Below the pieces are notes generated by a model. That model had not been told where the DNA came from. It made no database searches and was given only the letters and a program-made list of their open reading frames with translations. Positions 870 to 50,282 of a stretch of 50,411 nucleotides of DNA are shown here, in pieces (the stretch's first letter is position 1; the number at the start of each line of letters is the position of its first letter). The stretch is from Dehalococcoidia bacterium. Lineage in GTDB: Bacteria; Chloroflexota; Dehalococcoidia; GIF9; AB-539-J10. The translations under genes and the position numbers were made by a program. The DNA lies in contig PULQ01000053.1 in NCBI GenBank assembly GCA_003552465.1, positions 1 to 50,411 on the forward strand, read 5' to 3'.

Positions 870-1446
870 GAGGGCTGATAGCGGAATGCGACTGCTGGCA
901 GCGCAACCGGATTGCTTCGTCGTCCCGACACGTCGGGACTCCTCGCAATGACGCGGTAGAGTGTTGCCGCACGAGGCTAAAGCCTCGTACTACATCTGAG
1001 CGAGGCGTTGATCTCTGACCGCTGATGGCTGAAGGCCTATCCTCAGTCTCGTAACTCCTGCCGATTTCATCGAGCATCCTCGACGGAGTCGGGACCCAAA
1101 CCCACTCTTGTTCCTTTACTTCGTTCAAGGACAGGCCTAAGAGGGCGGGCCAGATTCTTCGCCCCGACAAGTCCGGGCTCAGAATGACAGGGGGAGGCGA
1201 CAAGTCGGGACCCTAGCCCCCTCCTATTCCTTCACTTCGTTCAAGGACAGGCCTGAGAGGGGGGACTCGATGCTGGGCTGTCATCCTACGAGGGGAAACC
1301 AGCGTTGCGGTCTGAAATCTGAAGGCTGACTGCCGCCCCTGTCATCGCGAACACCCGCGGCTCTGCAGAGGGTGTGCGGCGATCTCGACGATCCGCGGGA
1401 TTGCTTCGTTGTCCCGACGGGCCGGAGTTCGGGGTCAAGCCGGGAC
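870..1446. repeat. Composite cluster of REP-like palindromes (GTCAT..GAG-type and GTAG-type) with nested hairpin modules
   Basis: Palindromes at 908-952, 969-993, 1059-1094, 1151-1189, 1211-1267 and 1340-1446; 932-1058 is homologous to 4834-5011. Confidence 0.85.
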
Positions 1447-4065
1447 CTATTCCCGGTCTTTCAGCAGGAAGAGCCACCTGCCGGGATCGTCGGGGTAGTA
1501 GTCGAACGCGCGGAGTCTGATCCACCCGGAAGAACCGAAACTGAAGTCATCCAGGTAGTAGGAACCGTCGCCCACCCAGAGGTGGTTCTTCTCGTTCACC
1601 CAGTCTTTCAGGTTGTCCATGCGCGGGCCGACCTCGTCAGCGAAGCTGCCCAGGCCTGCGCCGGAGTACTGCGCGTCGATGAACTCGTAGTAAGGAACGC
1701 TGGCGTCCTCGTAGTCACCGGGGTCGAGAGCGCGTATGCCCTCCAGGTGGCCCGCCAGCGCGCCCAGTTGGACGTCCCTGTCGAGGAAGTCGGTCCAGCC
1801 CAGATCCGTTCCCTGGGCCTTGGTCTCACCGAAGGCCATGCTTCCGGCCCTCTCACCCCTTATGCCGAGGGCGATGGTGTGCCAGAAGCCGTTGCCCGGT
1901 GCGTAGTTCGGGTAACCGGTGCCGACCATGCGCTCGGCGTCCATCTCCGGCGAGGTCTCGACCTTCTTCGACCAGGTCTCGACCTTCAGTCCGACATCAT
2001 CCTCAGGGTTGACCGTGAACCTGACACCGATGGTGGTCTCGTATGTGGAGGCAATCTGCGATGCTGCTCCAGGATCATACATCGGGTTCACGCCCTCGCC
2101 CCGGGCGCGGTCATAGGGCAGGATCCAGCCGTAGAGGAAGTCGGCGAAGGAGAGCGTGCTCCCATCGTGCAGCGGGTGGCCCCAGATGTCCCGGGGGTAG
2201 TAGGCGACCGAGTAGCAGTCGACAAGCGTATCGTCAAGTGCCCACGGCTCGCCCTCATTGCCCGCGTCCAGCGCGTCGCCCACGGTTATCACCGACTGCG
2301 TCTCCCAGTCCCAGGCACGCCAGGCATCAACGGGAGCGCTGATATTGCCCGCGAAGTCCAGCGTCACCCAGTCGTGAGTGGCGGTTGCCGGAAAACCGGC
2401 CGTTACGGTTACCTCCGCCCTGTCGATGCGTCCCGGCCAGCACAGTCCGTCGCGCACGTCGGGGTGGGTGCCCCTGTCGCCGGTGGCCCGGACGGGGAAC
2501 ATGTCGTAGACGGTGTTGGAGCCGGCAACCGGGTTCCAGGGCTCGACCAGCAGGTCGTGCATGGCTACCCTGAGGTTTCCGCCGAACATCGGGTTGCCCG
2601 CGCCGTCGCGAAAGTGCGCCGTCAGGGCCCACATCCAGGAGCCGGGTATGCCGCCCTCGGTGCCGGCCGCCAGGTCCACGTTCGTCCTCAGCGGCGAGTA
2701 TTCCATGTTGTCAACGAGGTAGAACATGCCCCACTTCATGTGCGCCGGCAGGCAGATCTCGTACAGTGCATCGCGCTCGGCAAGGCTTGAGAACTCAAGA
2801 AAGGCCAGGTCGAAGGCTGCGTCATAGAACCAGCCCGGGACGTCCAGGTACTTGTAAGCCACTATTCCTGAATGCCAGAAATCGGTGTGGAAGTAGAGGT
2901 ACCAGTACCCCGAGTCGCGGGAGAGCTCGGAGGACATCCAGCCCCCCGTGTAAAGGTTCCAGCCGCCGCTGATGATCTCCGCCTCATCGTTGTGCGGAGG
3001 AGGACCGAACCAGCCTTCCCAATACCGGGGCGTAAAGACGAAGCCCATCCTCTCGATCTGCTCACCCACGTACTCACCGATGGCCGTGCGCACCGGATCC
3101 CACGAGGTGTAGAAAAGGCCTGTTAACTCGATCGGCTCGCCATCGTAGAGCCATCCGGTGGCGGCATCACCGGTGATGTCGCCGGGAACAAGTTCATCTA
3201 TAGCGGACATCGTCTCGTTCAGCCAGAGCAGGCCGGTAACCTCATCGTATCCGTACTCGTCCTCTAGATACCGGATGCCGGACTTCCCGGCGATGTGCGT
3301 GCCATCGTAGTACCTGGCGTAGTCCGGAAGCTGAGTGTGCTGAGACGTGAACTTCGGCCAGGCCAGGCCGCCCGCGATGACACCGGCTATGTGCTCGCGG
3401 TCGATGAACTTGTTCAGGACCTCGTTCATCGTGCGCACGCCCTCAGGGAAGTCGAACAGGTAGAAGGGGTTCAACGTTTCATCGGTGAAGGTGGGGCCAT
3501 AGGGGTTGATGTGCAGGGTGTTGAACGAGCATATGCTGCTCTTGTACCACAGGTCGGGGTCATCGTCCACGATTTCGAAGAGCTCTTGCGAGTCAAGGGT
3601 GTGTGCATAGACATCGAAGTCGCCCGCCTGCAGCCGCAGCACTGCCGACGTACCGTCCGGTTCCCTCTCGATCAGAATCTCGTCCAGCCAGAAGACACGA
3701 CTCGCCGCAAAGCTGGCTGTAACCGTCACAGCTGACGCGGGCATGGTGAAGCCGGTTGTCGGCGAATGAGCGTCGTCGAACGCCACCGCAGGACTGGAGG
3801 TCCACTTGACGAACCTGAAGCAGCGCTCTCCATCTACCGTGATGTTGACCGTAGCACCAGGGGCGTAGCTCGGACCACCATCCACAAGAGATGCTGTGCC
3901 GGCTCCGGCGGGAGATACCTGCAGCGTAACCCTGTAGGAAGGGGCACCACAGCCCGGCACGACCATCGCCGTGACGATGCCCCCGGCAATCAAACCCACC
4001 AGGAGCTTCCGCAGGACGCTCCCCGCGAGGTACCGGCATGAGCGCGAACCAGAAGTTCTCTCCAT
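1447..4065 (-). CDS. ABC transporter family-5 solute-binding lipoprotein with N-terminal InlB B-repeat-like domain; paralog of 9831-12383
   Basis: 872 aa; lipobox-like VVPGC; VEPWNPVAGSN motif; closely similar to the 9831-12383 product beyond the first ~120 aa. Confidence 0.85.
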   Translation of the reverse strand: MERTSGSRSCRYLAGSVLRKLLVGLIAGGIVTAMVVPGCGAPSYRVTLQVSPAGAGTASLVDGGPSYAPGATVNITVDGERCFRFVKWTSSPAVAFDDAHSPTTGFTMPASAVTVTASFAASRVFWLDEILIEREPDGTSAVLRLQAGDFDVYAHTLDSQELFEIVDDDPDLWYKSSICSFNTLHINPYGPTFTDETLNPFYLFDFPEGVRTMNEVLNKFIDREHIAGVIAGGLAWPKFTSQHTQLPDYARYYDGTHIAGKSGIRYLEDEYGYDEVTGLLWLNETMSAIDELVPGDITGDAATGWLYDGEPIELTGLFYTSWDPVRTAIGEYVGEQIERMGFVFTPRYWEGWFGPPPHNDEAEIISGGWNLYTGGWMSSELSRDSGYWYLYFHTDFWHSGIVAYKYLDVPGWFYDAAFDLAFLEFSSLAERDALYEICLPAHMKWGMFYLVDNMEYSPLRTNVDLAAGTEGGIPGSWMWALTAHFRDGAGNPMFGGNLRVAMHDLLVEPWNPVAGSNTVYDMFPVRATGDRGTHPDVRDGLCWPGRIDRAEVTVTAGFPATATHDWVTLDFAGNISAPVDAWRAWDWETQSVITVGDALDAGNEGEPWALDDTLVDCYSVAYYPRDIWGHPLHDGSTLSFADFLYGWILPYDRARGEGVNPMYDPGAASQIASTYETTIGVRFTVNPEDDVGLKVETWSKKVETSPEMDAERMVGTGYPNYAPGNGFWHTIALGIRGERAGSMAFGETKAQGTDLGWTDFLDRDVQLGALAGHLEGIRALDPGDYEDASVPYYEFIDAQYSGAGLGSFADEVGPRMDNLKDWVNEKNHLWVGDGSYYLDDFSFGSSGWIRLRAFDYYPDDPGRWLFLLKDRE

Positions 4066-4249
4066 CTCCCACCCCCGGGCCCTCCCCTCACCACGGGCAG
4101 ACCGCGACAGGAGTTACTACCCTGCCTCCTTCAAGATGCCGTCTGTCCGGCCGGTCAGCGGCCTCAGCGGTGCGACACTACACGGTCTCCGCCCTGGCCT
4201 GGAGGAGTCGCGACCGGACTGCTCCATCCTGTACGACAGTATGACACAA

Positions 4250-4269
4250 AAATGTTAGAATCCTGTTAA
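4250..4269 (-). promoter_or_regulatory. TTAACA-N5-CTAACA direct-repeat box (copy 1) ahead of an extended -10
   Basis: TTAACAGGATTCTAACATTT; 19/20 identical to the copies at 12763-12782 and 34812-34831. Confidence 0.75.
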
Positions 4270-4338
4270 CTTCCGGGGCCGACGCCGGAGAATGCCCCGC
4301 GACGGCAGGATGTGGTACGAGGGCGCACTCGAAGGCAG

Positions 4339-4530
4339 TCACCTCCGGCTGGCCATGTACATCCCTACGCCCGCCAGCCCCAGCACCAGGCCGGAGATCT
4401 GAGCCACGATAGCCACACCGTTCCAGAACCACGTTGTCTCAAGGACGCCGGTGATCATCAGTAACGGCACGATGACGCCTATGACGAGCAGGATGAACCC
4501 GATGATCATCAGGTAAACCGGTCTTTCCAT
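4339..4530 (-). CDS. Small two-TM membrane protein (63 aa)
   Basis: MERPVYLMIIGFILLVIGVIVPLLMITG...; two hydrophobic helices; GGAGG upstream. Confidence 0.7.
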   Translation of the reverse strand: MERPVYLMIIGFILLVIGVIVPLLMITGVLETTWFWNGVAIVAQISGLVLGLAGVGMYMASRR

Positions 4531-4669
4531 TATCTTGCAGCCCTCCGCGGGCATCAGGATTATTCTAGCCTTCACGGTGCCGTCAAGGCAAGTCGGCCAT
4601 CGGCCATGCCATGTCGCAGGGCAAATCGCTGATTCGTGACGATGGGGGAGTGGCAGTCCCACAGACCGA

Positions 4670-5115
4670 AGCTCAAATATCAAAATCCAAATGCCAAAGG
4701 AATGCCAAACACAAAGCTCAAATGCCAGACAGAATCAGCGGTCCTGCGTATCAAGGCCGGGTTGTTATCCTGAGAGGGGGCTAGATTCTTCGCCCCGACA
4801 GGTCGGGGCTCAGAATGACAGGAGAGGAGAGAGGTCGGGACTCCTCGCAATGACGCGGTAGAGGGTTGCCGCACGAGGTGCCGATGTAATCGGGTGCCGA
4901 CTGTCTCGAGCATCCTCGACGAAGTCGGGACTAAAGCCTCGTGCTACATCTGAGCAAGGCGTTGATCTCTGACCGCTGATGGCTGAAGGCTTGGCCTGAC
5001 TATCGTAACTCCCCCTAACCCCCTCTTATCCTAAGAGGGGGGACTAATAGCTGAAGGCTGAGTGCTGATGGCTGGGGGCTGAGTGCTGATAGCCGAAAGA
5101 TGACTGCTGACCGCC
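4670..5115. repeat. Intergenic repeat cluster: CAAAT heptamer arm, REP-like palindromes with a 52-nt insert, CCCCTCTTA..TAAGAGGGG hairpin, GCTGANN heptamers
   Basis: Direct comparison with 870-1270, 17222-17277 and 46645-46680. Confidence 0.85.
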
Positions 5116-5117
5116 TG

Positions 5118-6113
5118 CTACGCGGCGCGGTCGCCATCCTTATACAGCCAGCATTCGACGAAGTGGTTGGGTCTGGGCTCGAACTCGGGGGGTTCCTCCG
5201 TGTCGCAGAGCCCGTCGATCTTGCGTGTGCAACGGGGGTGGAAGCGGCAGCCCGGCGGGGGCTTTATCAGGCTGGGCGGCTCACCGGAGGGTATCTCCTT
5301 GAACTTCCCCACATTCTCGGGCTCAGGGTCGGGGATGGCATTGAGCAGCACCTGTGTGTAGGGATGCTGCGGGTTGTTCACTATCTCATTGACATCCGCC
5401 TTCTCCACCAGCTTGGCGGCATACATAACGAAGGCGCGCTGGGAGAAGTAGCGCACCGAGGAGAGGTCGTGGGTGATGTAGATGACGCCCAGATTGTGGG
5501 TCTCCTGGATCTTGCCCATCAACTCCAGGACCTCGACGCGCACGGAGGCGTCGAGCATGGACACGGGCTCGTCGGCCACGATGAGCATGGGGCGCAAGAG
5601 CAGGGCCCTGGCCACCACCAGCCGCTGTTGCTGCCCGCCCGAGAGCATGTGGGGATACTTGTGAAGGAAGTCATCGACGGGGATCAACCTGACCTCATCC
5701 AGCGCCTCCCGGATCCGCTGCTCCCGCTCGATCTTGGGCACCTTGTTGACGATGAGGGGCTCCGACAGAATCCTGTGCACGCTCATGAAGGGAGCAGTTG
5801 CTCCATAGGGGTCCTGCTGTACGAAGCCGACCTGCCAGCGCAGCCAGGTGAGGTCACGCGAGTTGTTGTAGTCAAGATTCCTACCGCCGAAGATCATCTC
5901 ACCATCGGTGATCTTGGCCAGGCCCAGGATGGTACGCAGCAGGGTCGTCTTGCCCGAGCCGCTCTCTCCCACTATGGTGACCGCCTCTCCGCGCGCGAGG
6001 TCGAAGCTGACCCCGTCGACGGCCCGCACATACCCGGCGTGCATGAAACCCCACCGTTTCAACTCGAAATAGGTGCGCACCCCGTTGAGCGACAGAATCT
6101 TGCTGTTATCCAT
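5118..6113 (-). CDS. oppF: Oligopeptide/dipeptide ABC transporter ATP-binding protein
   Basis: GESGSGKT, LSGGQQQR, IVADEP, HPY and CRFHPRC C-terminal motifs; start placed at MDNSK (alternative 6131). Confidence 0.92.
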   Translation of the reverse strand: MDNSKILSLNGVRTYFELKRWGFMHAGYVRAVDGVSFDLARGEAVTIVGESGSGKTTLLRTILGLAKITDGEMIFGGRNLDYNNSRDLTWLRWQVGFVQQDPYGATAPFMSVHRILSEPLIVNKVPKIEREQRIREALDEVRLIPVDDFLHKYPHMLSGGQQQRLVVARALLLRPMLIVADEPVSMLDASVRVEVLELMGKIQETHNLGVIYITHDLSSVRYFSQRAFVMYAAKLVEKADVNEIVNNPQHPYTQVLLNAIPDPEPENVGKFKEIPSGEPPSLIKPPPGCRFHPRCTRKIDGLCDTEEPPEFEPRPNHFVECWLYKDGDRAA

Positions 6114-6117
6114 AACG

Positions 6118-7134
6118 TCAGCCCGTCTCATACAGCCAGCACTTCACCGTCTCCTCCCCGTGCTCAAAGAGCGGCGGCTCTTCGTCGCATCTTTCAAACC
6201 GCCTGTGACAGCGGGCGGCGAACCGGCACCCTGTGGGCGGGTTGATCAGGCTTGGCGGCTGGCCGGGGATGAACTCGGGCTTCTTCTCAATGTGCAGGGT
6301 GGGCACGCTGGCCATGAGTTTCTGAGAGTAGGGGTGAAGGGGCTCCCGGTAGAACCTCTGGCCATCGCTATGCTCTACCAGCTGCCCGGCGTACATGCAG
6401 ATCCCCTCGTCGGCCAGTTCGCTTGAGGTGGCTATATCGTGGGTGATGAGCATGAAGCTCAACCCCAGGTCCTGCTTGATCTTCTTGAGTGTGTTCATTA
6501 TATTGGCCTGTGTCAGGACGTCCAGTGCCGAAGTCGGCTCATCGAGTATGACGATATCGGGGTCGGTTATCAGGGCCATGGCCAGGATCGCCCGCTGGCG
6601 CATTCCGCCGGAGAGCTCGAAGGCATAGCGATCCATGAACGCCTCGGGAACTCCCACCAGATTGAAGACCTCCCTCGCCTTCCGGTAGGCCTCCTTCTTG
6701 CCCACGTGGTCGAGCATCAGGGGCTCGGCCACCTGGTACCCCACCTTGACGACGGGGGTGAGAGCGTTCATGGCCGCCTGCGAGACCATCGACATCCTGG
6801 TCCACCTCACATCTTTACGGAAGCGTTCATCGCCGAACTTCATCACGTCAACGCCGTTGAGGAAGACGCGCCCCCTGTATGTATGCACGTTCTTGGGGAG
6901 CAGTCTCAAGATGGCACGCGCCAGCGATGTCTTGCCGCAGCCCGACTCGCCGATGATGGTGAGCGAACGTCCCCGGACCAGTTCGAAGCTCACACCCTCG
7001 ACCGCCTGCACCACCCCTGCGGTGGAGCGGAAGTAGAGGGTCAGGTCCTCGACCTTAAGACCGGGGCCTTCTGTCCGGTCCGGACTCCGGCCCCTCTCAG
7101 CCACTGCCTGTTTCCGTCTTCTCATACCGATCAT
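6118..7134 (-). CDS. oppD: Oligopeptide/dipeptide ABC transporter ATP-binding protein
   Basis: GESGCGKT, ELSGGMRQR, ILDEPT, HPY, GCRFAARC. Confidence 0.92.
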   Translation of the reverse strand: MIGMRRRKQAVAERGRSPDRTEGPGLKVEDLTLYFRSTAGVVQAVEGVSFELVRGRSLTIIGESGCGKTSLARAILRLLPKNVHTYRGRVFLNGVDVMKFGDERFRKDVRWTRMSMVSQAAMNALTPVVKVGYQVAEPLMLDHVGKKEAYRKAREVFNLVGVPEAFMDRYAFELSGGMRQRAILAMALITDPDIVILDEPTSALDVLTQANIMNTLKKIKQDLGLSFMLITHDIATSSELADEGICMYAGQLVEHSDGQRFYREPLHPYSQKLMASVPTLHIEKKPEFIPGQPPSLINPPTGCRFAARCHRRFERCDEEPPLFEHGEETVKCWLYETG

Positions 7135-7145
7135 CTATTTCCTTA

Positions 7146-8501
7146 TCACAGCTCCCTGAGCCTGGGGTTGAAGATGCGGTCGAGGGCGTACCCGACCAGG
7201 GCGAAGCCGAAGCCCAGTCCCATAAGCAGAATCGCGGGCTGCACTATCCAGTAGTAATGCCCCATTTGCAGGGCACCCTGATTATACCCGTCGTTTATCA
7301 TCTTGCCCCAGGTGGGCAGATAAGGGTCGCCGAGCCCGAGCACTGACAGCGTGGCCTCAAGAAACACAAACGTAGGAACTATCATCACGAATTGAGGGAG
7401 CAGTGTCGGCGCTATTCTGGGCAGTAGGTAGCGAAAGATGATGCGGAAGTTACCAGCACCGTAGGCCTGGGCCGACTCGAAGTAGGGAGACTCCTTCAAC
7501 TGCAGGAACATCGCCCGGTAGCCGAACATCGAGCCACTGAAGATGTTAAGCGCGATGACCAGTCCCAGGATGGTCCATATCCTCGGAGAGTACAGGTGGC
7601 TGATCATGATGAGGATGGGGAGCATCGGTAGGATGATATTCACCTGGGTGATCCAGAGGAAGGCCCTCTCCAGCTTGCCGCCGAACCAGGTGCCGATGCC
7701 GGCCAGGACGAAGGTGCTCATCTGGGCACCGATGGCAGCCAGTATGCCAAAGGTGAGTCCAATAGGCGCCCCCCAGAGGATGGGCAGCAGGAGGTCGCGC
7801 CGCCTGTGGTCGGTCCCTGCCGCGCCGTGCACCCGCCCGTAGACGGTCAAGCTAACATCGTCCAGGCTGTGCCCCTCTCTCATCTCGCCCTGTACGATTA
7901 GCTCGTAAGTGCCCTGCATCGCCTCTCTCTCTTCCCTGGGGACGGTGCGGTCTACCGCGAACAGGCCGAAGCGGGGCCGCATTTCCAGCCTTGCGTTGAG
8001 CTCTTCCAGCGTCTCGATATAGACGGTCTGCGCTCCACGGGTACGGACATCCTCGGTAATCAGGATAAGCTCCCCGTCCGGCTTACGCCAGTATACCGAC
8101 ACCAGCGGTCGCGGAACATCGGGCTCGAAAGACCATCCCATGGTCATCCGGAGCTCGCTGGGAAAGCCATCGTAGTGGTACTCGATGGGAATCACGGCCT
8201 CCACCCTCTTCATGCCGTCTTCCAGCGGTTCCTCGGTCAGAGTGGCCTCCTCGTCTGCCAAACCAGCCACGATGGTGCGGGGCAGTCTCTCGGAGGTGAA
8301 CCAGTCGAACCACACCGGCCGGGCTAACCTGGGGGTAGCAAGACGCTCGCCGTGGTCGCTCCAGATCCTGACCGCCTCGCTGTAGGGGACGGTGATAACG
8401 GCGTAGAGTGAGAGCACCACAAAGAAGAATATCAGCACAACCCCGCCTAGCGCCGAGGGGTAACGCCTGAGTTGCCTTAGTGACGACAAAAGCGTTTTCA
8501 C
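7146..8501 (-). CDS. oppC: ABC transporter permease with a large extracytoplasmic insertion
   Basis: GTDHRRRDL, ESAQAYGA (EAA loop), EATLSVLGLGDP. Confidence 0.88.
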   Translation of the reverse strand: MKTLLSSLRQLRRYPSALGGVVLIFFFVVLSLYAVITVPYSEAVRIWSDHGERLATPRLARPVWFDWFTSERLPRTIVAGLADEEATLTEEPLEDGMKRVEAVIPIEYHYDGFPSELRMTMGWSFEPDVPRPLVSVYWRKPDGELILITEDVRTRGAQTVYIETLEELNARLEMRPRFGLFAVDRTVPREEREAMQGTYELIVQGEMREGHSLDDVSLTVYGRVHGAAGTDHRRRDLLLPILWGAPIGLTFGILAAIGAQMSTFVLAGIGTWFGGKLERAFLWITQVNIILPMLPILIMISHLYSPRIWTILGLVIALNIFSGSMFGYRAMFLQLKESPYFESAQAYGAGNFRIIFRYLLPRIAPTLLPQFVMIVPTFVFLEATLSVLGLGDPYLPTWGKMINDGYNQGALQMGHYYWIVQPAILLMGLGFGFALVGYALDRIFNPRLREL

Positions 8502-8504
8502 CTG

Positions 8505-9590: not shown

Positions 9591-9654
9591 GGCAATCTGT
9601 CCTCCCTCTGAACTGCCGGAGAACCATCTCCCGCAGGTTCAGAGCGTTTTCAAT

Positions 9655-9683
9655 AATCTAGCACCCTCGCGGAGTAGTGTCAA
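9655..9683 (-). promoter_or_regulatory. Sigma70-type internal promoter for oppBCDF
   Basis: TTGACA-17 nt-TAGATT with TGn extension. Confidence 0.6.
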
Positions 9684-9753
9684 ATCAGCCAGCAGCCTCT
9701 TGCAGCCCCGATCCTCATGCTGAAGTATGGGCCGAAAACCCGGCGCGGGCTGG

Positions 9754-9785: not shown

Positions 9786-9830
9786 GCATCATCTTGCCCC
9801 GGCTTTCCGGGTCAAGCTGAGAGCTACGCT

Positions 9831-12530: not shown

Positions 12531-12572
12531 CCGGATTGCTTCGTCCCGATGTCATCGGGACTCGCAATGGCG
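12531..12572. repeat. REP-like palindrome in the oppA leader
   Basis: GGATTGCTTCGTCCCGATGTCATCGGGACTCGCAATG, homologous to 908-952. Confidence 0.75.
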
Positions 12573-19044: not shown

Positions 19045-19470
19045 ACCACCAGGAAAACCCCGCACTGCCCGAAACGAATGGCCCGTCACTCCTGTAGTGC
19101 GAGGCTTCAGCCTCGCGCCACCCCCCCGAAACGAATCCCTCGTGTTCTAGCAACCGAACGGGCTCCCCGCACCCACCCCACACACGAAAAACGGGACTTT
19201 GAACCTCCCAAAAAAACGCAATGCACAAAACGAATCAGCCCCCCCGTGTAGTGCGAGGCTTCAGCCTCGCGCCACCCCCTTCACTCATCACCGTCCCCGC
19301 ACCCGTTCCTGCTGTCATCGAGAGCCCCAGCATACCCCCCTCTTGTCATCGCGAGGACAGACCTCCCGACTCCGACTTGAGCCGGGGTCGAAGATGCTCG
19401 ATGAAGTCGGCACTCGTTGTAATCGGCACAGTCTGGCCGTGGCGACCCCGCCTCTTCACCACTCACCATT
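19045..19470. repeat. Repeat cluster, partly an inverted homolog of 45600-45960
   Basis: AAACGAAT units, two empty GTAG REPs (19094, 19248) and a TGCCGA-module variant at about 19371-19412 (minus strand). Confidence 0.75.
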
Positions 19471-39365: not shown

Positions 39366-39377
39366 CTCTGCTCCTTT

Positions 39378-41569: not shown

Positions 41570-41582
41570 CGGGATCAAGCAG

Positions 41583-42185: not shown

Positions 42186-42381
42186 CTCCCGTCCCTTTCT
42201 ACCATGACGTGTATACCCGGATGCATCCGTAAGGCCGTGTTACACCCCGGCGGCTTGAGTCCTTGTCCGCAACACCCCTCAGATATCTCACACGGCACCG
42301 GATATCCGTCCCGCATTCTAAGGGCCGTGGCGCGGCGCCGGGTCCATCGGGTTGTCAGAGGTGAACACCTAGCCCATCGTA

Positions 42382-42567
42382 TCACCCGGGATGAATGCAC
42401 AGTTGTTTCCTGATTAACTCGCAGAGGCTCTCCTTGATCTCGGAATGACGCGGCACCGGGGCACTCCTATTGTTCTTGGGGTTAACGTATATGTCATGCT
42501 TCCTTCCATGGCGCTTCGGGTAGCATCCCTCCGCCACAAGTTGCCTGATGAGATCATGTCGCTTCAC
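42382..42567 (-). CDS. hicA: HicA family toxin
   Basis: MKRHDLIRQL..GRKHDIY..VPRHSEI. Confidence 0.9.
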   Translation of the reverse strand: MKRHDLIRQLVAEGCYPKRHGRKHDIYVNPKNNRSAPVPRHSEIKESLCELIRKQLCIHPG

Positions 42568-42779
42568 ACCTCTATTCCGATCTCTCTGGTCTGGGCTGAT
42601 ACCGGCGGGTGAACATCCTCTTCAGTCATCAGGCGATATGCATCCCGAATGTTCTCCTGGAGTTCCTCCAGTGACTCTCCCTGGCTGAATACTCCGGGGA
42701 CCTCCTTCAACCTGCCGACAAACCAGCCTTCATCGGTCCAGTACTCGAGCGTGAAGTGCCTCGCTATTCTTCCTTCCAT
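42564..42779 (-). CDS. hicB: HicB family antitoxin (short form)
   Basis: GWFVGRLKEVPGVFSQGESLEELQENIRDA; overlaps hicA by 4 nt. Confidence 0.9.
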   Translation of the reverse strand: MEGRIARHFTLEYWTDEGWFVGRLKEVPGVFSQGESLEELQENIRDAYRLMTEEDVHPPVSAQTREIGIEV

Positions 42780-43049
42780 GTTGGTAGTTCTCCTTTGGGA
42801 TCTAACCCCTTCCATCATCTCCCGATTACTGCAAGGCTCTAAGCCAGACAACCCGGTTCTAGCAAGCCAAGACACCGCAACTCACGGCTGCTCCTGCGCT
42901 CACCATTATACCAGCATTGGGCGGAAGCAGGGGTTGCCATCAGCGCCCGCCACGGATTATGGTATACTTCGGTGTTCAGTCGGGCCTTATGTGACTGAGG
43001 CAGAGAGGCCGCCCGGTTCTGCAGGGCGTCTCTGCTGCCCGGATAGAGG

Positions 43050-45500
43050 ATGAGCGAGCAGAGTCCAGGGCGACGATGGAGGCTGCCCCCGGCAGCCATA
43101 GCGGCCATGATCGTGGCCGGCCTGTGCGGTTTGTCACTGTACATACGCCTGGACCTTCCGTATGACCGGATCTTCATCAACGACTGGGTGTGGTTCCGGG
43201 AGACCGATGCCTACTACTACATGCGTCACATAGAGAACATGGTCCACAACTTCCCCCGCTTCAATCCCTTCGATCCATATATGCTCTACCCCGGTGGTGG
43301 GGAGGGGCTTACCAGGCCGTTTTTCGCGTGGCTGGTGGCGGGCGCGACCAGGCTTTTCTTCGGGGCGAGTCCTACCCAGTTCCAGATCGCAGCTGTGGGC
43401 GCCTATATGCCCGCCATCCTCGGCACGCTGACCCTCATTCCTGTGTACTTCATCGGCAAGGCGTTGTTCAGCCGCTGGGCGGGCGTGCTCGCGGCGGCAC
43501 TGGTTGCCATCCTGCCCGGCGAGTTCCTGCACCGGTCGTTGCTCGGCTTCACGGATCACCACGTGGCGGAGGCCCTGTTCAGTGCAACGGCCATCCTGTT
43601 CCTCATACTGGCGGTCAGGAGCGCCCGTGAGAGGGAGATCAACTTCGGTCACCTGCTGGGAAGGGATTGGTCGACCATCAGAAGGCCTCTCGTTCATACG
43701 CTGCTTGCCGGCGTCTTCCTCGGCTTCTATCTCCTTTCCTGGAAGGGAGGGTTGCTGTTCATCTTCATCGTATTTGCCTACCTGGCAGTTCAGTTCATAG
43801 TCGATCATCTGAGGGGCAGGTCGACCGATTATCTGTGCATCATCGGGACTCCGCTGTTCCTGGTTGCATCCCTCCTGCTTCTGCCGGTGCTGGGTGTAGC
43901 GTGGGCGGATCGTGCCTACTGGTTTGCGCTGCCCTTCGCCATACTGGTGCCCGTGGTCCTGAGCGTGATCTCACGACTGCTGTCGGGCAGGGGGGGGAAA
44001 TCTGCTTACTATCCGCTGGTGCTGGCCGGGGTGGTCGGGATTGTGCTGGTTGGGCTGCTTGCCATCAACCCCGACCTGCTTCGCTTCATGCTGAGCCAGT
44101 TCGGCATCTTTGCCCCTGTAGGAGCCGCCCGCACCGTCCTGGAGATGCACCCCCTTACCCCTCAGATAGCATGGTCCAACTTCACTACCTCCTTTTTCAT
44201 CTCGTTGATAGCGCTTGTCATGCTCGGCTTCGTGGCCGTCAGAGAGAGAAGTGCGGAGAAGACCGTGTTCCTGGTGTGGTGCGTGGTGATGCTGGCGGCG
44301 GTAATCGGGCAGCGCCGCTTCGGATACTACTTCGCCGTGAATGTCGCCCTGCTCGCCGGGTACTTCTCCTGGAAGATGCTCGACCTGGCCGGCCTAAGGA
44401 GACTGCTGGCCAGGCGGAGGGAGGTGGTGGCAGCAGCAGTCACGACTACCAGAAAGAAGAAGCAGAAGAAACCGCGTCGGAGATCCGGCCCCGGGGGGTT
44501 CATGCAGCCCAGAGATGTCTGGATCAAGGTTATCATCGTGGGAGTGCTCATCTCATTCGCAGTCTTCCACTTCCCGAATTTCGTTCCCACCAAGTATGAC
44601 ACTGAGTCCGGAGCATGGAGTCGCGGTCCCGTGACGGAGCGGCAGGAGACCCAGGTCACTGGCATGACACTTCTGATGGCCGAGGGGCGGCACTTCATCG
44701 GTGACTGGCTTGATGAGGGATGGGAGAGTTCGTGTATCTGGTTGAGGGAGAACCCCCCCGAGCCGTTCGACGACCCGGATTACTATTATAAGGTATACCC
44801 GTCCAGGGCCGATTTCGAGTATCCTGAGACGGCGTACGGTGTAATGTCATGGTGGGATTACGGCTACTTCATAATGCAGATCGGGCGTCGTATCCCCACC
44901 ACCAATCCAACGCAGGCCCGGGCGGTCGAGGCCGGTCAGTTCTTCACTGCGCTGGACGAAGACTCGGCCAACGAGGTGGCGGATGATAGAGGCCTCAGGT
45001 ACGTGATGATCGACCATATGATGGCGACCACCAAGTTCTATGCCATGGTTGAGTGGGCTGAGCCCCGGACTGGCAAGAGCGTGGACGAGTTCTACCGGAT
45101 CTACTACCAGACTGCTCAGGACGGAAGGCTGATGCCGGTGCGGCTGTATTACCCTGCCTATTATCGATCCACTGTCGTCAGGCTCTACAACTTCGACGGC
45201 GAAGCGGTGGAACCCACGGAGTCGACGGTGATCTCCTATGAGGATAAGACGAGCCGGGAGGGATTCAGGTATAGGGAGATAACCGGCGTGTGGTCCTTCG
45301 ACTCCTACGAAGAGGCACTGAACCACATAGAAGGCCGGGAGGCCGACAACTACAGGATCGTTAGCAGCAGCCGCTTCAGCAGCCCCGTGCCTCTTGAGGA
45401 GTTGACCGGTTACGAGCTGGTTCATGAGTCCGATGAGCGGGTCTCTATGGGGGACAGGAGCCTCCCCGGCGTGAAGGTCTTCGAATATGTCGGCGGCTGA
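43050..45500 (+). CDS. aglB: STT3-family oligosaccharyltransferase, archaeal AglB-like
   Basis: ETDAYY, FTDHH, QRRF, WWDYG, TNPTQ, DHMMATTK; many TM helices. Confidence 0.92.
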   Translation: MSEQSPGRRWRLPPAAIAAMIVAGLCGLSLYIRLDLPYDRIFINDWVWFRETDAYYYMRHIENMVHNFPRFNPFDPYMLYPGGGEGLTRPFFAWLVAGATRLFFGASPTQFQIAAVGAYMPAILGTLTLIPVYFIGKALFSRWAGVLAAALVAILPGEFLHRSLLGFTDHHVAEALFSATAILFLILAVRSAREREINFGHLLGRDWSTIRRPLVHTLLAGVFLGFYLLSWKGGLLFIFIVFAYLAVQFIVDHLRGRSTDYLCIIGTPLFLVASLLLLPVLGVAWADRAYWFALPFAILVPVVLSVISRLLSGRGGKSAYYPLVLAGVVGIVLVGLLAINPDLLRFMLSQFGIFAPVGAARTVLEMHPLTPQIAWSNFTTSFFISLIALVMLGFVAVRERSAEKTVFLVWCVVMLAAVIGQRRFGYYFAVNVALLAGYFSWKMLDLAGLRRLLARRREVVAAAVTTTRKKKQKKPRRRSGPGGFMQPRDVWIKVIIVGVLISFAVFHFPNFVPTKYDTESGAWSRGPVTERQETQVTGMTLLMAEGRHFIGDWLDEGWESSCIWLRENPPEPFDDPDYYYKVYPSRADFEYPETAYGVMSWWDYGYFIMQIGRRIPTTNPTQARAVEAGQFFTALDEDSANEVADDRGLRYVMIDHMMATTKFYAMVEWAEPRTGKSVDEFYRIYYQTAQDGRLMPVRLYYPAYYRSTVVRLYNFDGEAVEPTESTVISYEDKTSREGFRYREITGVWSFDSYEEALNHIEGREADNYRIVSSSRFSSPVPLEELTGYELVHESDERVSMGDRSLPGVKVFEYVGG

Positions 45501-45594
45501 GCGAGCGCTGTTAAGGCCAGTGATCGTCTACCCATCCCCTCGAAGCCAGAAGGCTGTTGTCTCGCGCCCTTGAGAGTTGATGGCGATGATGGGG

Positions 45595-46180
45595 TGGCGG
45601 GGTGATTCGTTTTGTGCAGGTCGAGTTTTTTGGCGATTGGACTGCCTGTTTTTCGTGTGTGGGGTGGGTGTGGGGAGCGCATTCAGTTGCTGAAACATGA
45701 GGGATTCGTTTCGGGAGGTGTGGGGTTTTCGGGGGGTGAAGAGTAACGAGTAACGAGTAATGAGTGACGGGTGAAGAGTGAATGCTAAACGGTGAATGGC
45801 GAATAGTGAATGGGGGAGAGACGAGATCGCCACGTCGCCCCGACTGCATCGGGGCTTCTCGCGATGACGGGGGTTCGGAGTGATGAGTGAAGGGGGGCGG
45901 CGCGAGGCTAAAGTGCCGATCACATCGAGCACCCTGGATGAAGTCGGGGCCTCGCACTACAGAGGCATTGGGGGCAAAGGCCCAGGCCCCGAGCGGGGAC
46001 AAGCCCCACTCCGACGAAGGGTCGGGATGGCGGGGGTCTTGTTCGGTTGTTAAGGTACAGGGGATTCGTTTTGTGCGGTGCGGGGAGCCTATTCAGTTGT
46101 CGGGTACGATTGATTCGTTTTGTGCAGTGTGGGGGGGGCTTATTCAGTTGTAAATGTACAGGGATTCGTTTTGTCAGGGC
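45595..46180. repeat. Repeat cluster: TTCRGTTGY..GATTCGTTT units, GAGTRAN heptamers, REPs and a filled GTAG REP
   Basis: Units at 45602, 45681, 46041, 46091 and 46142; REP at 45823-45868; 36-nt insert at 45914-45949. Confidence 0.8.
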
Positions 46181-46544
46181 CGGTCGGTGGCGTTGTTGAT
46201 CCGTCGGGGGTGGGGAAGCGGCCTGCGATGATGGACTCCAGAATGAGGTCGATAACCGTCTTCAGGTCCCTGTGGTCGGCTGCATCCAGGGAGTACATAT
46301 CGGAATACGCTTTTGCCAGGAGTCTGGAGGCTTCGGTGAGGACGCGGCGATTGTCGGGGTGGTGCTGAAGGGAGGATAGCAGTTTGACACGAACGAGTGC
46401 TGCCCGGGGGTCAACACCTTCTATGTTGATTCCGGTCCAGAGCTGGTCTGTTTCGGCGGGGCTAAGGGCAGGCGAGTAGAAGCCGTGTTTGCGGGCGTTC
46501 TGGTTGCCTTTCTGGCCACCGCGCTTCCTTCGATTTCGTTTCAA
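46140..46544 (-). CDS. Hypothetical protein with a basic KRGGQKGNQNARKHGFYS N-terminus
   Basis: RBS AAGGAGG, TTG start; motif resembles nucleic-acid-binding tails of small terminase-like proteins (inference). Confidence 0.7.
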   Translation of the reverse strand: MKRNRRKRGGQKGNQNARKHGFYSPALSPAETDQLWTGINIEGVDPRAALVRVKLLSSLQHHPDNRRVLTEASRLLAKAYSDMYSLDAADHRDLKTVIDLILESIIAGRFPTPDGSTTPPTGPDKTNPCTFTTE

Positions 46545-46559
46545 GCTGGGAATCCTCCT

Positions 46560-46775
46560 TCATCAGCGGTCAGGGGTGAGCGGTCAGCTTTCAGTTGTCA
46601 GGCGTTGGGGGTCGGGGGTCGGGGGTCTGCTGTCTGCTGTCATAACTCCCCTAGCCCCTCTTAGCTTAAGAGGGGGATTGAGCAATCGTCTTGTCCGGGG
46701 TCGGGGGTCAAGATGGGCAGAAGAGTACATCCTGAGTGAGATTCGTCGGTCGCTTCGCTTCCTCAGAATGACAGT
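46560..46775. repeat. GTCRGNN heptamer array, CCCCTCTTA..TAAGAGGGG hairpin and REP
   Basis: 7-nt periodicity 46560-46641; hairpin 46655-46675. Confidence 0.75.
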
Positions 46776-46948
46776 TTTGATCAAAGCAATTTCCGGGACT
46801 GAACACCAGTGCTGCGGGAGGGGCTGGTGCAGTTGACTTAGAACAAGAGTTCTAGACCAAGGATAGCACGGGTTCCTGGATTCAGTCAAGGGGAAAATGT
46901 CCGTCTCGATCCGGGCGGTCGCGGTTGGAAGGGCAAGGGGCGGGGGGT

Positions 46949-46998
46949 TAGTGGTTAATGGTTAATGGTTAATGGTTAATGGTTGATGGTTGATGGTG
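46949..46998. repeat. TAATGGT heptamer microsatellite
   Basis: About 7 units of T(A/G)ATGGT. Confidence 0.85.
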
Positions 46999-47026
46999 TG
47001 TGGCGGGATCGCCACGGCCAGACTGC

Positions 47027-47284
47027 GTCTGGCCTCGCGATGACGAGAGAGGGGTGTGCGTCTGGTCTCGCGATGACGAGAGAGGGGTGCGTCTGGCCTC
47101 GCGATGACGAGAGAGGGGTGTGCGTCTGGCCTCGCGATGACGAGAGAGGGGTGTGCGTCTGGTCTCGCGATGACGAGAGAGGGGTGCGTCTGGTCTCGCG
47201 ATGACGAGAGAGGGGTGTGTCTGGTCTCGCGATGACGAGAGAGGGGTGTGTGTCTGGTCTCGCGATGACGAGAGAGGGGTGTGT
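47027..47284. repeat. Tandem repeat, 8 copies of 31-33 nt
   Basis: GTCTGGYCTCGCGATGACGAGAGAGGGGT(GT/GC)n; no unique spacers. Confidence 0.92.
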
Positions 47285-47487
47285 CGGGGCTCGGGATGAC
47301 AAGGGGGAGTGAAGAGTGAATGGTGGGAGAGGCGAGATCGCCACGTCGCCCCGACTGCATCGGGGCTCCTCGCGATGACAATGGGGGGTATGTCGGGACT
47401 CGCGATGGTGGGGGATGCGCGCCCGGGCTCACATTATGCTTTACCGGGATTGACGCTTATGTTAATATAGACATTAAGGAGGTCAGC

Positions 47488-47769
47488 ATGGGAAAGATAA
47501 AGTCAATCGGGATGGCTGAGGCAAGGCCGAAGCTCACCCATCTTGTTGAAGAAGTCTGCGCCGGGGGAGATCCGTACCTGATAGTGTCCGGCAGCCGGGT
47601 GAAGGCAGTGCTCATGGGCATTGAACGGTACAATGACATGGTAGAGCGACTGGAAGACCTGAGCGATGCTGCCAGCCTGCTCCGGGCGGAGCTGGACCGT
47701 GAGCCGACCGTGTCTTTCGCTCAACACCTGGCGGAGTCTAAACAGGCAGAGAGCCGTGTATCGGCTTGA
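47488..47769 (+). CDS. Phd/YefM family antitoxin
   Basis: IGMAEARPKLTHLV...AVLMGIERY...LEDLSD; RBS AAGGAGG. Confidence 0.88.
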   Translation: MGKIKSIGMAEARPKLTHLVEEVCAGGDPYLIVSGSRVKAVLMGIERYNDMVERLEDLSDAASLLRAELDREPTVSFAQHLAESKQAESRVSA

Positions 47770-48010
47770 GATCAGTCAGACTGCCCACCGGCAGGTCCGG
47801 AAGCTTCCGGCATCCACCCGGGAGAGGATCAACAAGGCCATTGCGGGGCTGGGTGATGATCCCCGGCCATACGGCAGCAGAGAGCTAACAGCAGGCGAGG
47901 GATACAGGATTCGGGTGGGGGACTACCGTGTCCTGTACAGGGTTGATGATAAGTCCGGGACGGTCACTATCTACCGGGTGATGGGCAGGGAGGATGTCTA
48001 CCGGGGCTAG
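47756..48010 (+). CDS. relE: RelE/ParE family toxin
   Basis: YRLEIS..AHRQVRKL...DPRPYG...YRIRVGDYRVLY...REDVYR; GTG start. Confidence 0.9.
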   Translation: MYRLEISQTAHRQVRKLPASTRERINKAIAGLGDDPRPYGSRELTAGEGYRIRVGDYRVLYRVDDKSGTVTIYRVMGREDVYRG

Positions 48011-48175
48011 AGTGAATGGCAAATAGTGAATGGTGAATAGTGAATAGTAAAGAGAAGCGAGTGACGAGTAACGAGTGATGAGAGGGCGGAGTGACGGGAT
48101 CGCCACGGCCAGACTGCGTCTGGCCTCGCGATGACGGGGGCTCGGAGTGATGAGTGAAGAGCAGTCAGCGATCAG
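48010..48175. repeat. Heptamer array plus REP
   Basis: GTGAATR/GAGTRAC units; REP at 48096-48136 identical to 47005-47046. Confidence 0.75.
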
Positions 48176-48333
48176 CGGGACGAACCCGCCGATCTCGGTT
48201 GACAATAACCAGGAACTGCCGGATGAGCGCGGGTTCTCTGCCGGACCGAAAGAGTGTATAATTTCGTTGCCTCCGCAAGCTGATTGCTGTGCCTGGCAGG
48301 GGAAGGTTCTACTGTATGGAGGGAGGTTGAATA

Positions 48334-48540
48334 ATGCCAACGCTAAAGGAATTGCTAGACCAGTTACCGCCTGACCTGCAGGAGGAAGCCAAGGACTTCG
48401 TGGAGTTCTTACTGCAGAGGCGAGGTACGAGGGAGAATGGAGAGCTCAAGTTACAGTGGAGGGGAGCACTACGAGAGCTGAGGGACCGGTATACCTCGGT
48501 GGAACTCCAACACAAAGCTCTTGAATGGCGGGGTGACTGA
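48334..48540 (+). CDS. DUF2281-like antitoxin
   Basis: LPPDLQEEAKDFVEFLL...WRGAL...YTSVELQHKALEWR; coupled to the PIN gene. Confidence 0.82.
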   Translation: MPTLKELLDQLPPDLQEEAKDFVEFLLQRRGTRENGELKLQWRGALRELRDRYTSVELQHKALEWRGD

Positions 48541-48937
48541 TGTACCTCCTCGACAGTAACCTCTTCCTCGAACTTCTACTGGACCAACGTAAGGCGGATG
48601 AAGTTGAACAGCTGCTGCAAAGAACCCCGAGAGAGAAGCTGCACATCTCGGAGTTCTCAGTACACTCCATGGGCATCACTTTTTTCGCCATAAGCTGTTT
48701 GAAGTCTTTGCGCAGTTCCTGGGTGAACTAGTGGTGAAAGGCGGGGTTCGTGTGCTCAGGCTCTCTCTTCAGGACATTGGGGGACTGACGAGCATAGCGC
48801 AGCGATTCAAGCTGGACTTTGACGATGCCTATCAGTATGGAATTGCTGAGAAGTTCGACCTTGAGATCATCAGCTTCGATGGCGACTTCGATCGGACGGA
48901 AAGAGGCCGCAGGACACCAGCCCAGCTTGAAGTCTGA
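48540..48937 (+). pseudogene. vapC: PIN-domain (VapC) toxin split by a frameshift at a T6 run
   Basis: MYLLDSNLFLE... continues in the -1 frame as RHKLFEVFAQFLGELVVKGG...LDFDDAYQY...SFDGDFD. Confidence 0.85.
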
Positions 48938-49169
48938 TGCCGACGAAGTCGGGAATCGCGAATCTCATCGGGACAGACGCCCTGAACTACCCAACCTGCC
49001 ATGAGGCGGCCCGTCACTGATCGCCGTTCGCGGTTCGCCCATAATCAGGCATAGTTGGCCGAGAACACGTCAGGGAAACTGAGGGCAGTCGTGACGGGTG
49101 GGGTGGGGTTCATCGGGTCGCACTTGGTCGAGGGGTTGCTCGGATGGGGGGTGCAGGGTGGCCGAGGGG

Positions 49170-49398
49170 GCTGGGAGTGACGAGAGATGAGTGGCGAGGG
49201 AAGGGGGGCGGCGCGAGGCTGAAGTGCCGATCACATCGAGCACCCTCGATGAAGGCGGGGCCTCGCACTACATCAATTGTGTGACTGCTGAGTGCTGACT
49301 GTTGGGTGCTGGGTTTGGGGGCTGGGGGTGATAGGATGGGATGTGTCAGGCTTGGGATGGCGGGATGGGGGTGTCGGGGCTCAGGGTGACAGGATGGC
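49170..49398. repeat. Filled GTAG REP plus GCTGRNN heptamers
   Basis: 36-nt insert at 49225-49260; homologous to 45880-45960. Confidence 0.78.
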
Positions 49399-49755
49399 TT
49401 AGCGGGGGTAGACCCAGACGATTTCCTTCGCGGCCCGTTGCCATCTTCCCTGATCAGAAAGCTTCTGCCACTCCGCTGTGGTATATATGAGCAGGTCAAC
49501 GGGAACGGGAAGCGGGGTGGTATCGAATCCTGCAGGTCGCATCTCGAACGGCTGTGCCGAACTCTCCACAATGATCACCAGATCCAGATCGCTTCCCACC
49601 CCCCAATCGCCCCTGGCATAGGAGCCGAGATAGCCAATGCGCACGATCTCCCGGTGATGGGCGGTGATCTCTGCTACCCACTCATGTAATGTCCTGAGAA
49701 CCGTTTCCGGCTCAGGCCATTTGAGAATCGACGAACTCAACAATCTCACCGGCAT
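49399..49755 (-). CDS. Minimal nucleotidyltransferase (MNT)
   Basis: GYLGSYARGDWGVGSDLDL; start placed at MPVRLLSS. Confidence 0.88.
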   Translation of the reverse strand: MPVRLLSSSILKWPEPETVLRTLHEWVAEITAHHREIVRIGYLGSYARGDWGVGSDLDLVIIVESSAQPFEMRPAGFDTTPLPVPVDLLIYTTAEWQKLSDQGRWQRAAKEIVWVYPR

Positions 49756-50101
49756 AACGGATCGCCTGTTCACTCTGCAGTCTGCCGTGGTGTTCGAAGG
49801 GAGAACCCTCGGGAAAAGAATCCGGATAGCGTGGAGAAATGTAGTAGACATCCAGCAGTTGTGCCTTTTCCACCAGTTCAGCGGGGATGCTGATAGCCCC
49901 GGGCAACTCGCGGATGAGTTTGGCGACTACATGTCCCCAGGCTTCCTGCCCGGAGTGCAGATGCAGGGCTTTGACAGCCTTCTCGGCCGCCTGCTGGGCG
50001 GCAAAGCAGGCCCATTCATGGTGCCCGGTACGCCGCGAGTCCTCAGCCTGCTCCAGGTCCTTGTGTGCCTGCCTCAACCAGTCACGGTCACGATTTGCCA
50101 T
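49712..50101 (-). CDS. HEPN domain protein
   Basis: WLRQAHKDL, WACFAAQQAAEKAVKA, WGH, YISPRYP; RBS GGAGG. Confidence 0.92.
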   Translation of the reverse strand: MANRDRDWLRQAHKDLEQAEDSRRTGHHEWACFAAQQAAEKAVKALHLHSGQEAWGHVVAKLIRELPGAISIPAELVEKAQLLDVYYISPRYPDSFPEGSPFEHHGRLQSEQAIRYAGEIVEFVDSQMA

Positions 50102-50282
50102 CTGTTCCTCCGGTACATCATAGCTTACCACAGGATACCGTTTACCTTCTAATGCGGTGGGTGATGGGGAGGGCGTGGGCTTGTCCTCTGTAGCGGGGCC
50201 CTTGAGGGGAGGGAGGCGCGAGGCTGAAGCCTCGCACTACAGGGGTGCCGGGGGCGGGGAGTGATGAGTGAAGGGGCGGGAA

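Follow-up and report, generated by a model that had tools for sequence, protein, structure and literature searches.

A 36-bp hairpin doublet as a candidate non-autonomous mobile unit in the repeats of Dehalococcoidia

REPINs are defined as doublets of inverted short palindromes that are able to fold as one long hairpin, and repetitive extragenic palindromes (REPs) of the Escherichia coli type carry a GTAG tetranucleotide beside the palindrome. The miniature (PATE-type) elements of the IS200/IS605 group have hairpins at both ends, insert precisely and do not duplicate their target, and the small dispersed repeats (SDRs) of cyanobacteria, according to what Elhai et al. are said to have reported in 2008 (Genome Res), measure 21-27 nt and insert inside other small repeats. 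Cyanobacteria and mitochondria have both been proposed to contain mobile units shorter than about 50 nt, with a mechanism that the available extracts of these papers describe as unresolved: in those extracts SDR5 inserts at the HIP1 palindrome and SDRs are confined to Nostocaceae (PMC5861425), the double-hairpin elements of Allomyces show no flanking duplications (PMC2800124), and yeast GC42 shows a putative AG target duplication (PMC4478555). Here we analyse a stretch of 50,411 nucleotides (the window), which is contig C103 (PULQ01000053.1) of the assembly GCA_003552465.1 of a Dehalococcoidia bacterium (1.8 Mb, 167 contigs, 58% G+C, 86.7% completeness), and in which an earlier note, made from the letters alone, had pointed out a 36-nt hairpin module in filled and empty states inside REPs. 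Our analysis indicates that this module is very probably a genuinely inserted mobile unit. The fuller picture, of a 36-bp palindromic non-autonomous doublet that inserts precisely and without target duplication at G^C, with a single-strand HUH-type route as the leading candidate, has in our judgement about even chances of being right. In what follows G000 is the source assembly, other G labels (G013, G017, G044, G054 and so on) are its congeners, L denotes a locus and C a contig.

The pattern of the earlier note, searched in the window with up to three mismatches, matched at exactly four places (1059-1093, 4895-4929, 45914-45948 and 49225-49259), all on the plus strand and with 0 mismatches, and at none in 100 dinucleotide shuffles of the window, so that the four copies that had been named are exact and none is expected by chance. 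The host REP (GCRCGAGGCTRAAGCCTCGYRCTAC) is empty at four places (0 expected), 969..993 (+), 19094..19118 (-), 19248..19272 (-) and 50216..50240 (+), and filled at three, as had been described and as both pattern matching and direct reading confirm. The reverse complement of the empty copy at 969 reads GTAG followed by the palindrome, and this copy folds at -7.2 kcal/mol (z = -3.6).

The filled REP at 4870-4947 consists of GCACGAGG with its preceding base (4870..4878, +), a 52-nt insert (4879-4930) and then CTAAAGCCTCG, its right part being CTAAAGCCTCGTGCTAC (4931..4947, +). The insert is made up of the 16-nt TGCCGATGTAATCGGG (4879..4894, +), discussed below, and an inner copy of the module (4895..4930, +), which scores 53.7 bits against a covariance model (CM) built on 102 distinct copies; the region 4866-4950 folds at -24.7 kcal/mol (z = -5.7). 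Insertion was here at the 5' stem-loop junction (site a). The two other filled REPs, at 45900-45960 and 49211-49271, read GAGGCTRAAG, the 36-nt module and then CCTCGCACTAC, and are filled at the 3' loop-stem junction (site b), sites a and b being the two ends of the CTRAAG loop. In the former the left part GCGCGAGGCTAAAG (45900..45913, +), the module (45914..45949, +) and the right arm CCTCGCACTAC (45950..45960, +) follow each other directly, and in the latter the corresponding parts lie at 49211..49224, 49225..49260 and 49261..49271, all on the plus strand. Both modules score 46.5 bits and belong to a REP-b subfamily with C at position 19 and G at position 36; since the copy at 49225 shares its variable bases with that at 45914, it is probably a copy of the REP and module composite.

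Leaving out the 52-nt insert, identity between the homologous blocks 932-1058 and 4834-5012 is 90-98%, and the module does sit at different positions in them, as had been claimed. In the first block it follows GTAACTCC (1059..1094, +; 62.1 bits) in a class II host repeat of the form RTAACTCC, insertion point, CCTRRCCCCTCTTA..TAAGAGGGG, whereas the equivalent site of the second block (5005-5013) is empty, GTAACTCC being continued by CCCTAACCCCCTCTTATCCTAAGAGGGGGG (5005..5043, +); a second empty class II site of the window lies at 46642..46680 (+). A contig of sequencing run X1 spanning 1007-2322 covers the 1059 module with 0 differences. The filled REP at 4870-4947 lacks such an independent bridge, as no listed X1 contig spans 4863-5016, and the indels listed for the sequencing-run contigs include none of 36 nt at any module site.

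Beyond the window, the genome-wide count that had been proposed as a check gives about 10 copies in the 1.8-Mb metagenome-assembled genome (MAG). The original pattern finds 6 copies in G000 and a relaxed pattern 7, four of these seven canonical copies falling in the window, and the CM at a cut-off of at least 25 bits gives 10 matches, among them the composite of nested modules at 19364-19412 (-) and, on C120, a variant of 62 nt. A degenerate copy at C4:25819 lies in no credible gene. The 147 distinct flank sequences collected from G000, its congeners and the listed metagenome loci fall into at least 26 context clusters, rather than one fixed context. The claim of independent, precise insertions of a unit far smaller than typical MITEs (miniature transposable elements with inverted repeats) is supported by these contexts, by self-nesting and by a clean insert in the gene mtaB.

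The contexts are of several kinds. REPs of G000 are filled at 3 places and empty at 16 hits (15 loci), with insertions at site b (GAGGCTRAAG, module, CCTCGCACTAC) or at site a (GCACGAGG, module, CTRAAGCC), the latter also filled in G054 (L095) and in the metagenome loci L255 and L158, and in L158 one REP is filled at both sites. Class II repeats (RTAACTCC, module, CCTRRCCCCTCTTA..TAAGAGGGG) are filled 5 times and empty 8-9 times in G000. The loops of further small hairpins form another context, as does the repeat CGTTCGTSSTGAG, module, CTTGTCGAA, whose AG^CT centre is filled in both orientations (L240 versus L173/L260). Class I copies lie in A-rich tracts and have only 50-130 nt around the module in common; they share no neighbouring genes, which indicates that they are not one conserved orthologous locus. 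Other modules, or hairpins resembling them, also receive the module, in their central loop (TCGAG^CATC): modules within modules occur at L002, L090/L152 and L245/L170/L147/L243, the TCGAG^CATC junction is seen in L090/L152, L224 and L245, and L224 holds a module inside a module inside a REP. The last context is coding DNA. Across flanks of very different base composition the module consensus is nearly identical.

In coding DNA, the mtaB-like radical-SAM gene of three of 44 congeners (G013, G022 and G044) carries an MPTxxSILGxVG insert between ...WEKE and TSPGS..., whereas 41 of 44 orthologues, including those of G000 and of G017, the sister of G013, are without exactly these 36 nt. The insert adds 12 codons in frame by splitting an ACC codon after its A, with no footprint at the DNA level, and it was found in three MAGs and in three metagenome contigs. 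The three inserts carry an unusual CCTYG...CTCGG signature, and their common variable bases point to one origin. On a quick gene tree of MtaB the filled alleles do not form one clade, well-supported branches forcing at least two changes, so that precise loss or allele transfer is required. The module consensus is stop-free in five of the six frames. Copies at L184, L259 and L244/L005 (metagenome loci and G016) lie in frames that stay open and protein-like over all 435 nt of the locus, and may represent further in-frame insertions into genes. Insertion within a gene is proven for mtaB and plausible for a few others, most copies being intergenic.

The exactness of these boundaries bears on the suggestion that the module does not move at all, but is a functional motif (a protein-binding site, a terminator or a small RNA) kept by selection, or else an artefact of metagenome assembly. 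Conserved stems with variable loops do suggest structural constraint, and the predominance of intergenic copies fits such a role, but convergence cannot account for boundaries that are exact both in flanks with no relation to each other and within a conserved gene. In addition, no Rfam family matches the window at gathering score, and none matches the module at E<=1 in 600-5200. Chimeric joins would not place the same host repeat on both flanks, as is the case at the filled sites, nor would an artefact be expected to recur as the mtaB insert does. We therefore regard an immobile or artefactual module as scarcely credible. CRISPR repeats, integron attC sites and core sites of tyrosine recombinases were set aside by eye, there being no array, no R and L boxes and a spacer of only 4 nt.

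Junction statistics were taken from one representative per context cluster (n = 26). No target-site duplication was found in any of six registers (at most 3/26 for 2 nt and at most 1/26 for 3-5 nt), and the absence of duplication noticed in the window was thus borne out in every register tested. The host base 5' of the insert is G in 16 of 26 contexts, the last module base is A in 23, and the host base 3' of the insert is C in 20; the same bases are seen in empty sites, and so the junction G and C belong to the host. Within hairpin hosts the insert usually adjoins one of the arms, immediately following the 5' arm or immediately preceding the 3' arm. Because there is no duplication, the ends are hairpins and the targets are hairpin loops, we rank first a structure-specific route through single strands. 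That this route is an HUH single-strand mechanism is a tentative proposal, possible but short of probable.

The same junctions could be produced on duplex DNA, by a transposase or nuclease that recognises the T(G/C)CCGA terminal inverted repeats and integrates the 36-bp duplex at a blunt G^C cut. Element and junctions are indeed symmetric, each strand reading G|T(G/C)CCGA, and both the lack of duplication and the two orientations at the palindromic AG^CT site would follow. However, the preference for loops and stem-loop junctions suggests folded single strands as targets, and we know of no enzyme of this kind acting on a 36-bp substrate, which makes the duplex route quite improbable in our view.

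The alignment of the 102 distinct copies resolves into two adjacent mini-hairpins (columns 4-7/11-14 and 21-26/30-35). This pairing is accompanied by 27 double-change cells, compared with 6.6 +/- 2.2 in shuffles, none of 500 shuffles reaching 27, although most columns were fixed by the search pattern and are therefore uninformative, the covariation resting on the two pairs 7-11 (UA 69, CG 16) and 26-30. In contrast, a single long hairpin shows fewer double changes than the shuffles (22 versus 36.1), even though the two folds hardly differ in stability (-7.8 and -8.0 kcal/mol for the consensus strands). The module is a doublet of inverted mini-hairpins (CGAY-NNN-RTCG) that can switch to a long hairpin, and the original description of a hairpin nested in a hairpin gives way to one of two hairpins side by side, which covariation favours.

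On the plus strand of the module there are many T-G oppositions, which would suit a copy-and-paste route in which a reverse transcriptase re-inserts a transcript of the hairpin. RNA-mediated re-insertion has been proposed, in the available extracts of the respective papers, for the Allomyces double-hairpin elements and the yeast GC clusters (PMC2800124, PMC4478555), and the absence of flanking duplications discussed in those extracts offers an analogy. Against this, G000 has no match to RVT_1, and the element is symmetric and inserted in both orientations at one site; we consider the RNA route very improbable.

Copies nested in one another explain two features that had been taken for other states of the module. 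The 16 nt at 4879-4894, thought to be a core-only form, recur in run X2, in a contig that stems from another locus or organism, where they continue as an uninterrupted 36-nt module at REP site a. Together with the nested TCGAG^CATC forms, this suggests that they are an outer module's left half, the central loop having been interrupted; the locus is best read as an outer module at 4879 whose loop took up the module at 4895 and whose right half was then lost between direct repeats. The stretch 1196-1210 was considered as a remnant of a right half and rejected, as it belongs to another repeat shared with 4830-4845. The longer variant reported on the minus strand is real, but its extent is different, as it spans about 19362-19428 as a nested composite (19362..19428, -; CM match 19364-19412, 36.2 bits) in the loop of a GGCCAGAC...GTCTGGCC repeat. 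It comprises an outer left half, the left part and core of an inner module, an extra 16-nt hairpin and a shared right end, and its history is read as the same as that of the outer module at 4879-4894; G041 (L090) and L152 have its homologue as a complete nested form. The CM matches of 62-63 nt, such as that on C120, are modules with a 27-nt hairpin in the central loop.

The mini-hairpin also occurs alone (CCGAYNNNRTCGG), at 53 loci of G000 compared with 7-16 in controls, mostly centred in larger palindromic repeats. This family, (T)CCCGAY-NNN-RTCGGG(A), is represented in the window for example at 12546, 18487, 45840 and 47351, and the palindromic repeats centred on it are of the forms GATCGCCACG...CTCGCGATGAC, GATTGCTTCG...CTCGCAATGAC and ATTCTGAG...CTCAGAAT. 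The second supposed core-only form, TGCCGACGAAGTCGGGA at 48938..48954 (+), immediately 3' of the stop codon of a PIN-domain open reading frame (ORF), appears indistinguishable from this generic family, and its letters lend no support to a derivation from the module. A class II hairpin (CCCCTC..GAGGGG) with a loop insert of about 26 nt (ttcctt.acttcgttcaaggacaggc) is present in two tandem-like copies, 87% alike, at 1087-1149 and 1203-1264, and this insert seems to be another small unit nested in a hairpin loop.

Modules, mini-hairpin singlets of 15-17 nt and 27-nt loop inserts could belong together, as a self-nesting community of hairpins below 40 nt that enter G^C loop junctions without duplication and are moved by an enzyme class new to transposition, or by host replication or repair acting on folded single strands. 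We think this unlikely. Were it true, it would amount to a new transposition mechanism and to the smallest mobile DNA documented in bacteria outside cyanobacteria.

In a set of 52 species genomes of the genus (0.6-2.6 Mb), the module was detected in 15 by pattern and in 24 by the CM at a cut-off of at least 30 bits, and it was not matched in any of 16 genomes that belong to other families of the order. An even sample of the class gave matches in 3 of 401 genomes, namely G000, one congener and one genome of a distant family. This last genome (G308, family f38) has two identical copies, on contigs C118 and C156, which suggests either horizontal spread or contamination of the bin. Public metagenome contigs contain at least 122 loci with at least 127 copies, and IMG/VR viral contigs two copies.

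The host repeat itself agrees with what is expected of a REP: its reverse complement reads GTAGYGCGAGGC..., it has 16 hits in G000, and it pairs with a GTAGTGCGACCC-type REP. Inverted, REPIN-like pairs of the two types, GTAGTGCGACCC..GGGTCGC and GTAGYGCGAGGC..GCCTCG, are found on C13, C33 and C87 of G000 and at L004, L006 and L050. The host REPs look like ordinary REPs of the type linked to REP-associated tyrosine transposases (RAYTs). No RAYT was found for them in G000, and in G001 a REP pair adjoins a Y1 gene.

Mobilisation in trans by an HUH/RAYT-type enzyme had been suggested, with co-occurrence as the check. Y1 genes are present in 17 of the 52 genus genomes, 11 of the 24 module carriers and 6 of the 28 non-carriers (p=0.08), and IS110 genes above cut-off in 21, 12 of 24 carriers and 9 of 28 non-carriers (p=0.26, not significant); these genomes are related, incomplete MAGs, so that such tests overstate the signal. 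The suggestion is left with a weak positive trend, which falls short of significance, and there is no Y1 gene in G000. One of six Y1 loci examined (L114, in G001) is adjoined by an inverted REP pair, next to a 161-aa Y1 ORF. The G000 assembly itself has one IS110 transposase and two resolvase-domain matches. That transposase, of the IS110 family (DEDD), is represented by its N-terminal part at 1-660 (-) of the window, cut off by the contig start; upstream of it, the non-coding stretch from 661 to about 930 extends into the cluster of repeats in which the REP at 969 lies. Another IS110 fragment stands beside the filled REP of G054 (L095), and the two IS110 genes have no common DNA beyond the module.

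Taken together, we propose that the module would be a non-autonomous mobile element formed by two inverted mini-hairpins and a short spacer, which may enter precisely at a junction with a host G (or A) before it and a host C after it, leaving the target unduplicated. The usual targets would be the stem-loop junction or the loop of a hairpin repeat (a REP, an RTAACTCC repeat or the central loop of another module), and an occasional insertion into coding DNA could persist because it is 12 codons long and open in five frames. After insertion, the composite of host repeat and module would be copied onward with the host. The mobile form of the element is presumably a folded single strand, on which a structure-specific enzyme acts in trans; an HUH Y1 protein of the RAYT/IS200 type would be the leading, unproven candidate for this enzyme.

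Several observations weigh against this proposal, in addition to the few columns on which covariation rests. No filled/empty polymorphism was seen at one locus of one population, copy number is low (about 1-10 full copies per genome), and variable bases are shared within a host class (TCACA/TGAAG at 45914 and 49225, TCGCA/CTCCG on C7, C87 and C144), meaning that many copies arose by spread of a composite and not by new insertion. As for the enzyme, G000, at 86.7% completeness, has no match to Y1_Tnp (PF01797), to the TnpB zinc-ribbon domain or to RVT_1; the association with Y1 (p=0.08), obtained by comparing related MAGs, is not significant; and 13 of the 24 module-bearing congeners have no Y1 match, among them the module-rich G044 (93% complete, 19 CM matches), G013 and G006. 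None of the six Y1 loci examined carries the module or the mini-hairpin, and the 26 contexts show only G^C and no target word of 4-5 nt of the IS200/IS605 type.

Much of this could also be explained if the module were a relic of a few old insertions, since spread through amplification of its host repeats (the REPs by their own RAYT, the class II and the A-rich repeats) and through homologous recombination or gene conversion between copies and species. Subfamily marks shared within a host class (C19 and G36 in REP-b), the single origin suggested by the signature of the three mtaB inserts, the low copy number and the lack of a candidate enzyme in the G000 assembly all agree with such a history. 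However, at least 26 contexts still demand that many original insertions, self-nesting is found in several outer variants, both orientations occur at one AG^CT site, and a near-identical consensus across flanks of differing composition fits recent spread better. We hold the relic explanation to be rather unlikely, and prefer a unit inserted repeatedly, with its composites copied thereafter.

Other features of the window lie close to the repeats or between them. At 48334-48937 (+) an ORF resembling a DUF2281 antitoxin precedes a PIN-domain (VapC-like) gene whose reading frame changes at about 48731; the two look like a toxin-antitoxin pair hit by a frameshift. A stub of 41 codons at 49055-49180 (+) opens like an NAD-dependent epimerase/dehydratase (GxxGxxG) and then passes directly into the cluster of repeats, which makes the gene appear truncated by them. 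A tandem array of a 9-nt unit (CAGGGGYCA-like) extends from 50270 to the contig end at 50411 and is probably the reason why the assembly stops there. The gene at 43050-45500 (+) encodes an 816-aa oligosaccharyltransferase of the STT3/AglB type, in a bacterium; Dehalococcoidia MAGs commonly contain homologues of 40-70% identity, with 278 stretches confirmed in genome contigs.

Among known systems, the PATE-type elements of the IS200/IS605 group resemble the module in their terminal hairpins and in precise, duplication-free insertion, but the module has no 5' target word of 4-5 nt, its hairpins are inverted and not direct, and Y1 is absent from several of its carriers. To our knowledge, no miniature element of that group comes near to it in shortness. 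From a classical MITE, with terminal inverted repeats, a target duplication and usually more than 100 bp, it differs in having the inverted repeats without the duplication and in its 36 bp.

The likeness to REPINs and the REP/RAYT system lies in the doublet of inverted short palindromes folding as one hairpin, in non-autonomy and in the presence of both singlets and doublets, as far as the extracts of PMC3116915 (Bertels and Rainey 2011) describe them. In contrast to REPINs, the module is about half to a third of the size commonly given for them, has low copy numbers and also lies inside genes; it is neither strictly extragenic nor of high copy number (about 10 copies in G000, and an mtaB copy in three congeners). 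It has no GTAG-type tetranucleotide, its flanks being a host G or A on the left and a host C on the right, and no RAYT gene flanked by the module was found among the six Y1 loci, the co-occurrence with Y1 not being significant.

The mitochondrial GC42 of yeast and the double-hairpin elements of Allomyces are likewise units of 30-80 nt with variable loops that merge and shuffle, and according to extracts of the two papers (PMC4478555, PMC2800124) they insert in intergenic DNA and in genes and stay in transcripts. They are, however, organellar and unrelated in sequence, and the duplication that the extract attributes to GC42 is absent from the module. Rickettsia palindromic elements (RPEs) are also palindromic repeats kept in frame in protein genes, but the extract of PMC10969869 gives them about 150 bp and a mostly intragenic location, whereas the module has 36 bp and is mostly intergenic.

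The nearest bacterial analogues, compared here by description only, are SDR4-6 of the Nostocaceae, which share with the module the very small size and the dispersal over many contexts. The module differs from them in its occurrence in Dehalococcoidia, its unrelated sequence, its 36-nt mini-hairpin doublet, the G^C at its loop junctions and a documented in-frame gene insert. Our full-text literature search found no paper on REP- or MITE-type repeats in Dehalococcoidia, and within that search and the Rfam search the description of the module as undescribed holds, close analogues being known. It behaves like a mobile element that is among the smallest known, and it offers a clean case of so small a unit, with exact boundaries, filled and empty sites in several repeats and in a conserved gene, self-nesting, a G^C rule and at least 127 metagenome copies, and these features make the question of the enzyme testable. 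They also indicate that, in Dehalococcoidia with their small genomes, intergenic DNA is assembled from hairpins stacked one inside another, and that an enzyme of the essential type can gain 12 residues from such a unit and not be destroyed. Tiny mobile hairpin repeats are already known as a kind; among them the module is a new sequence, and its self-nesting is unusual.

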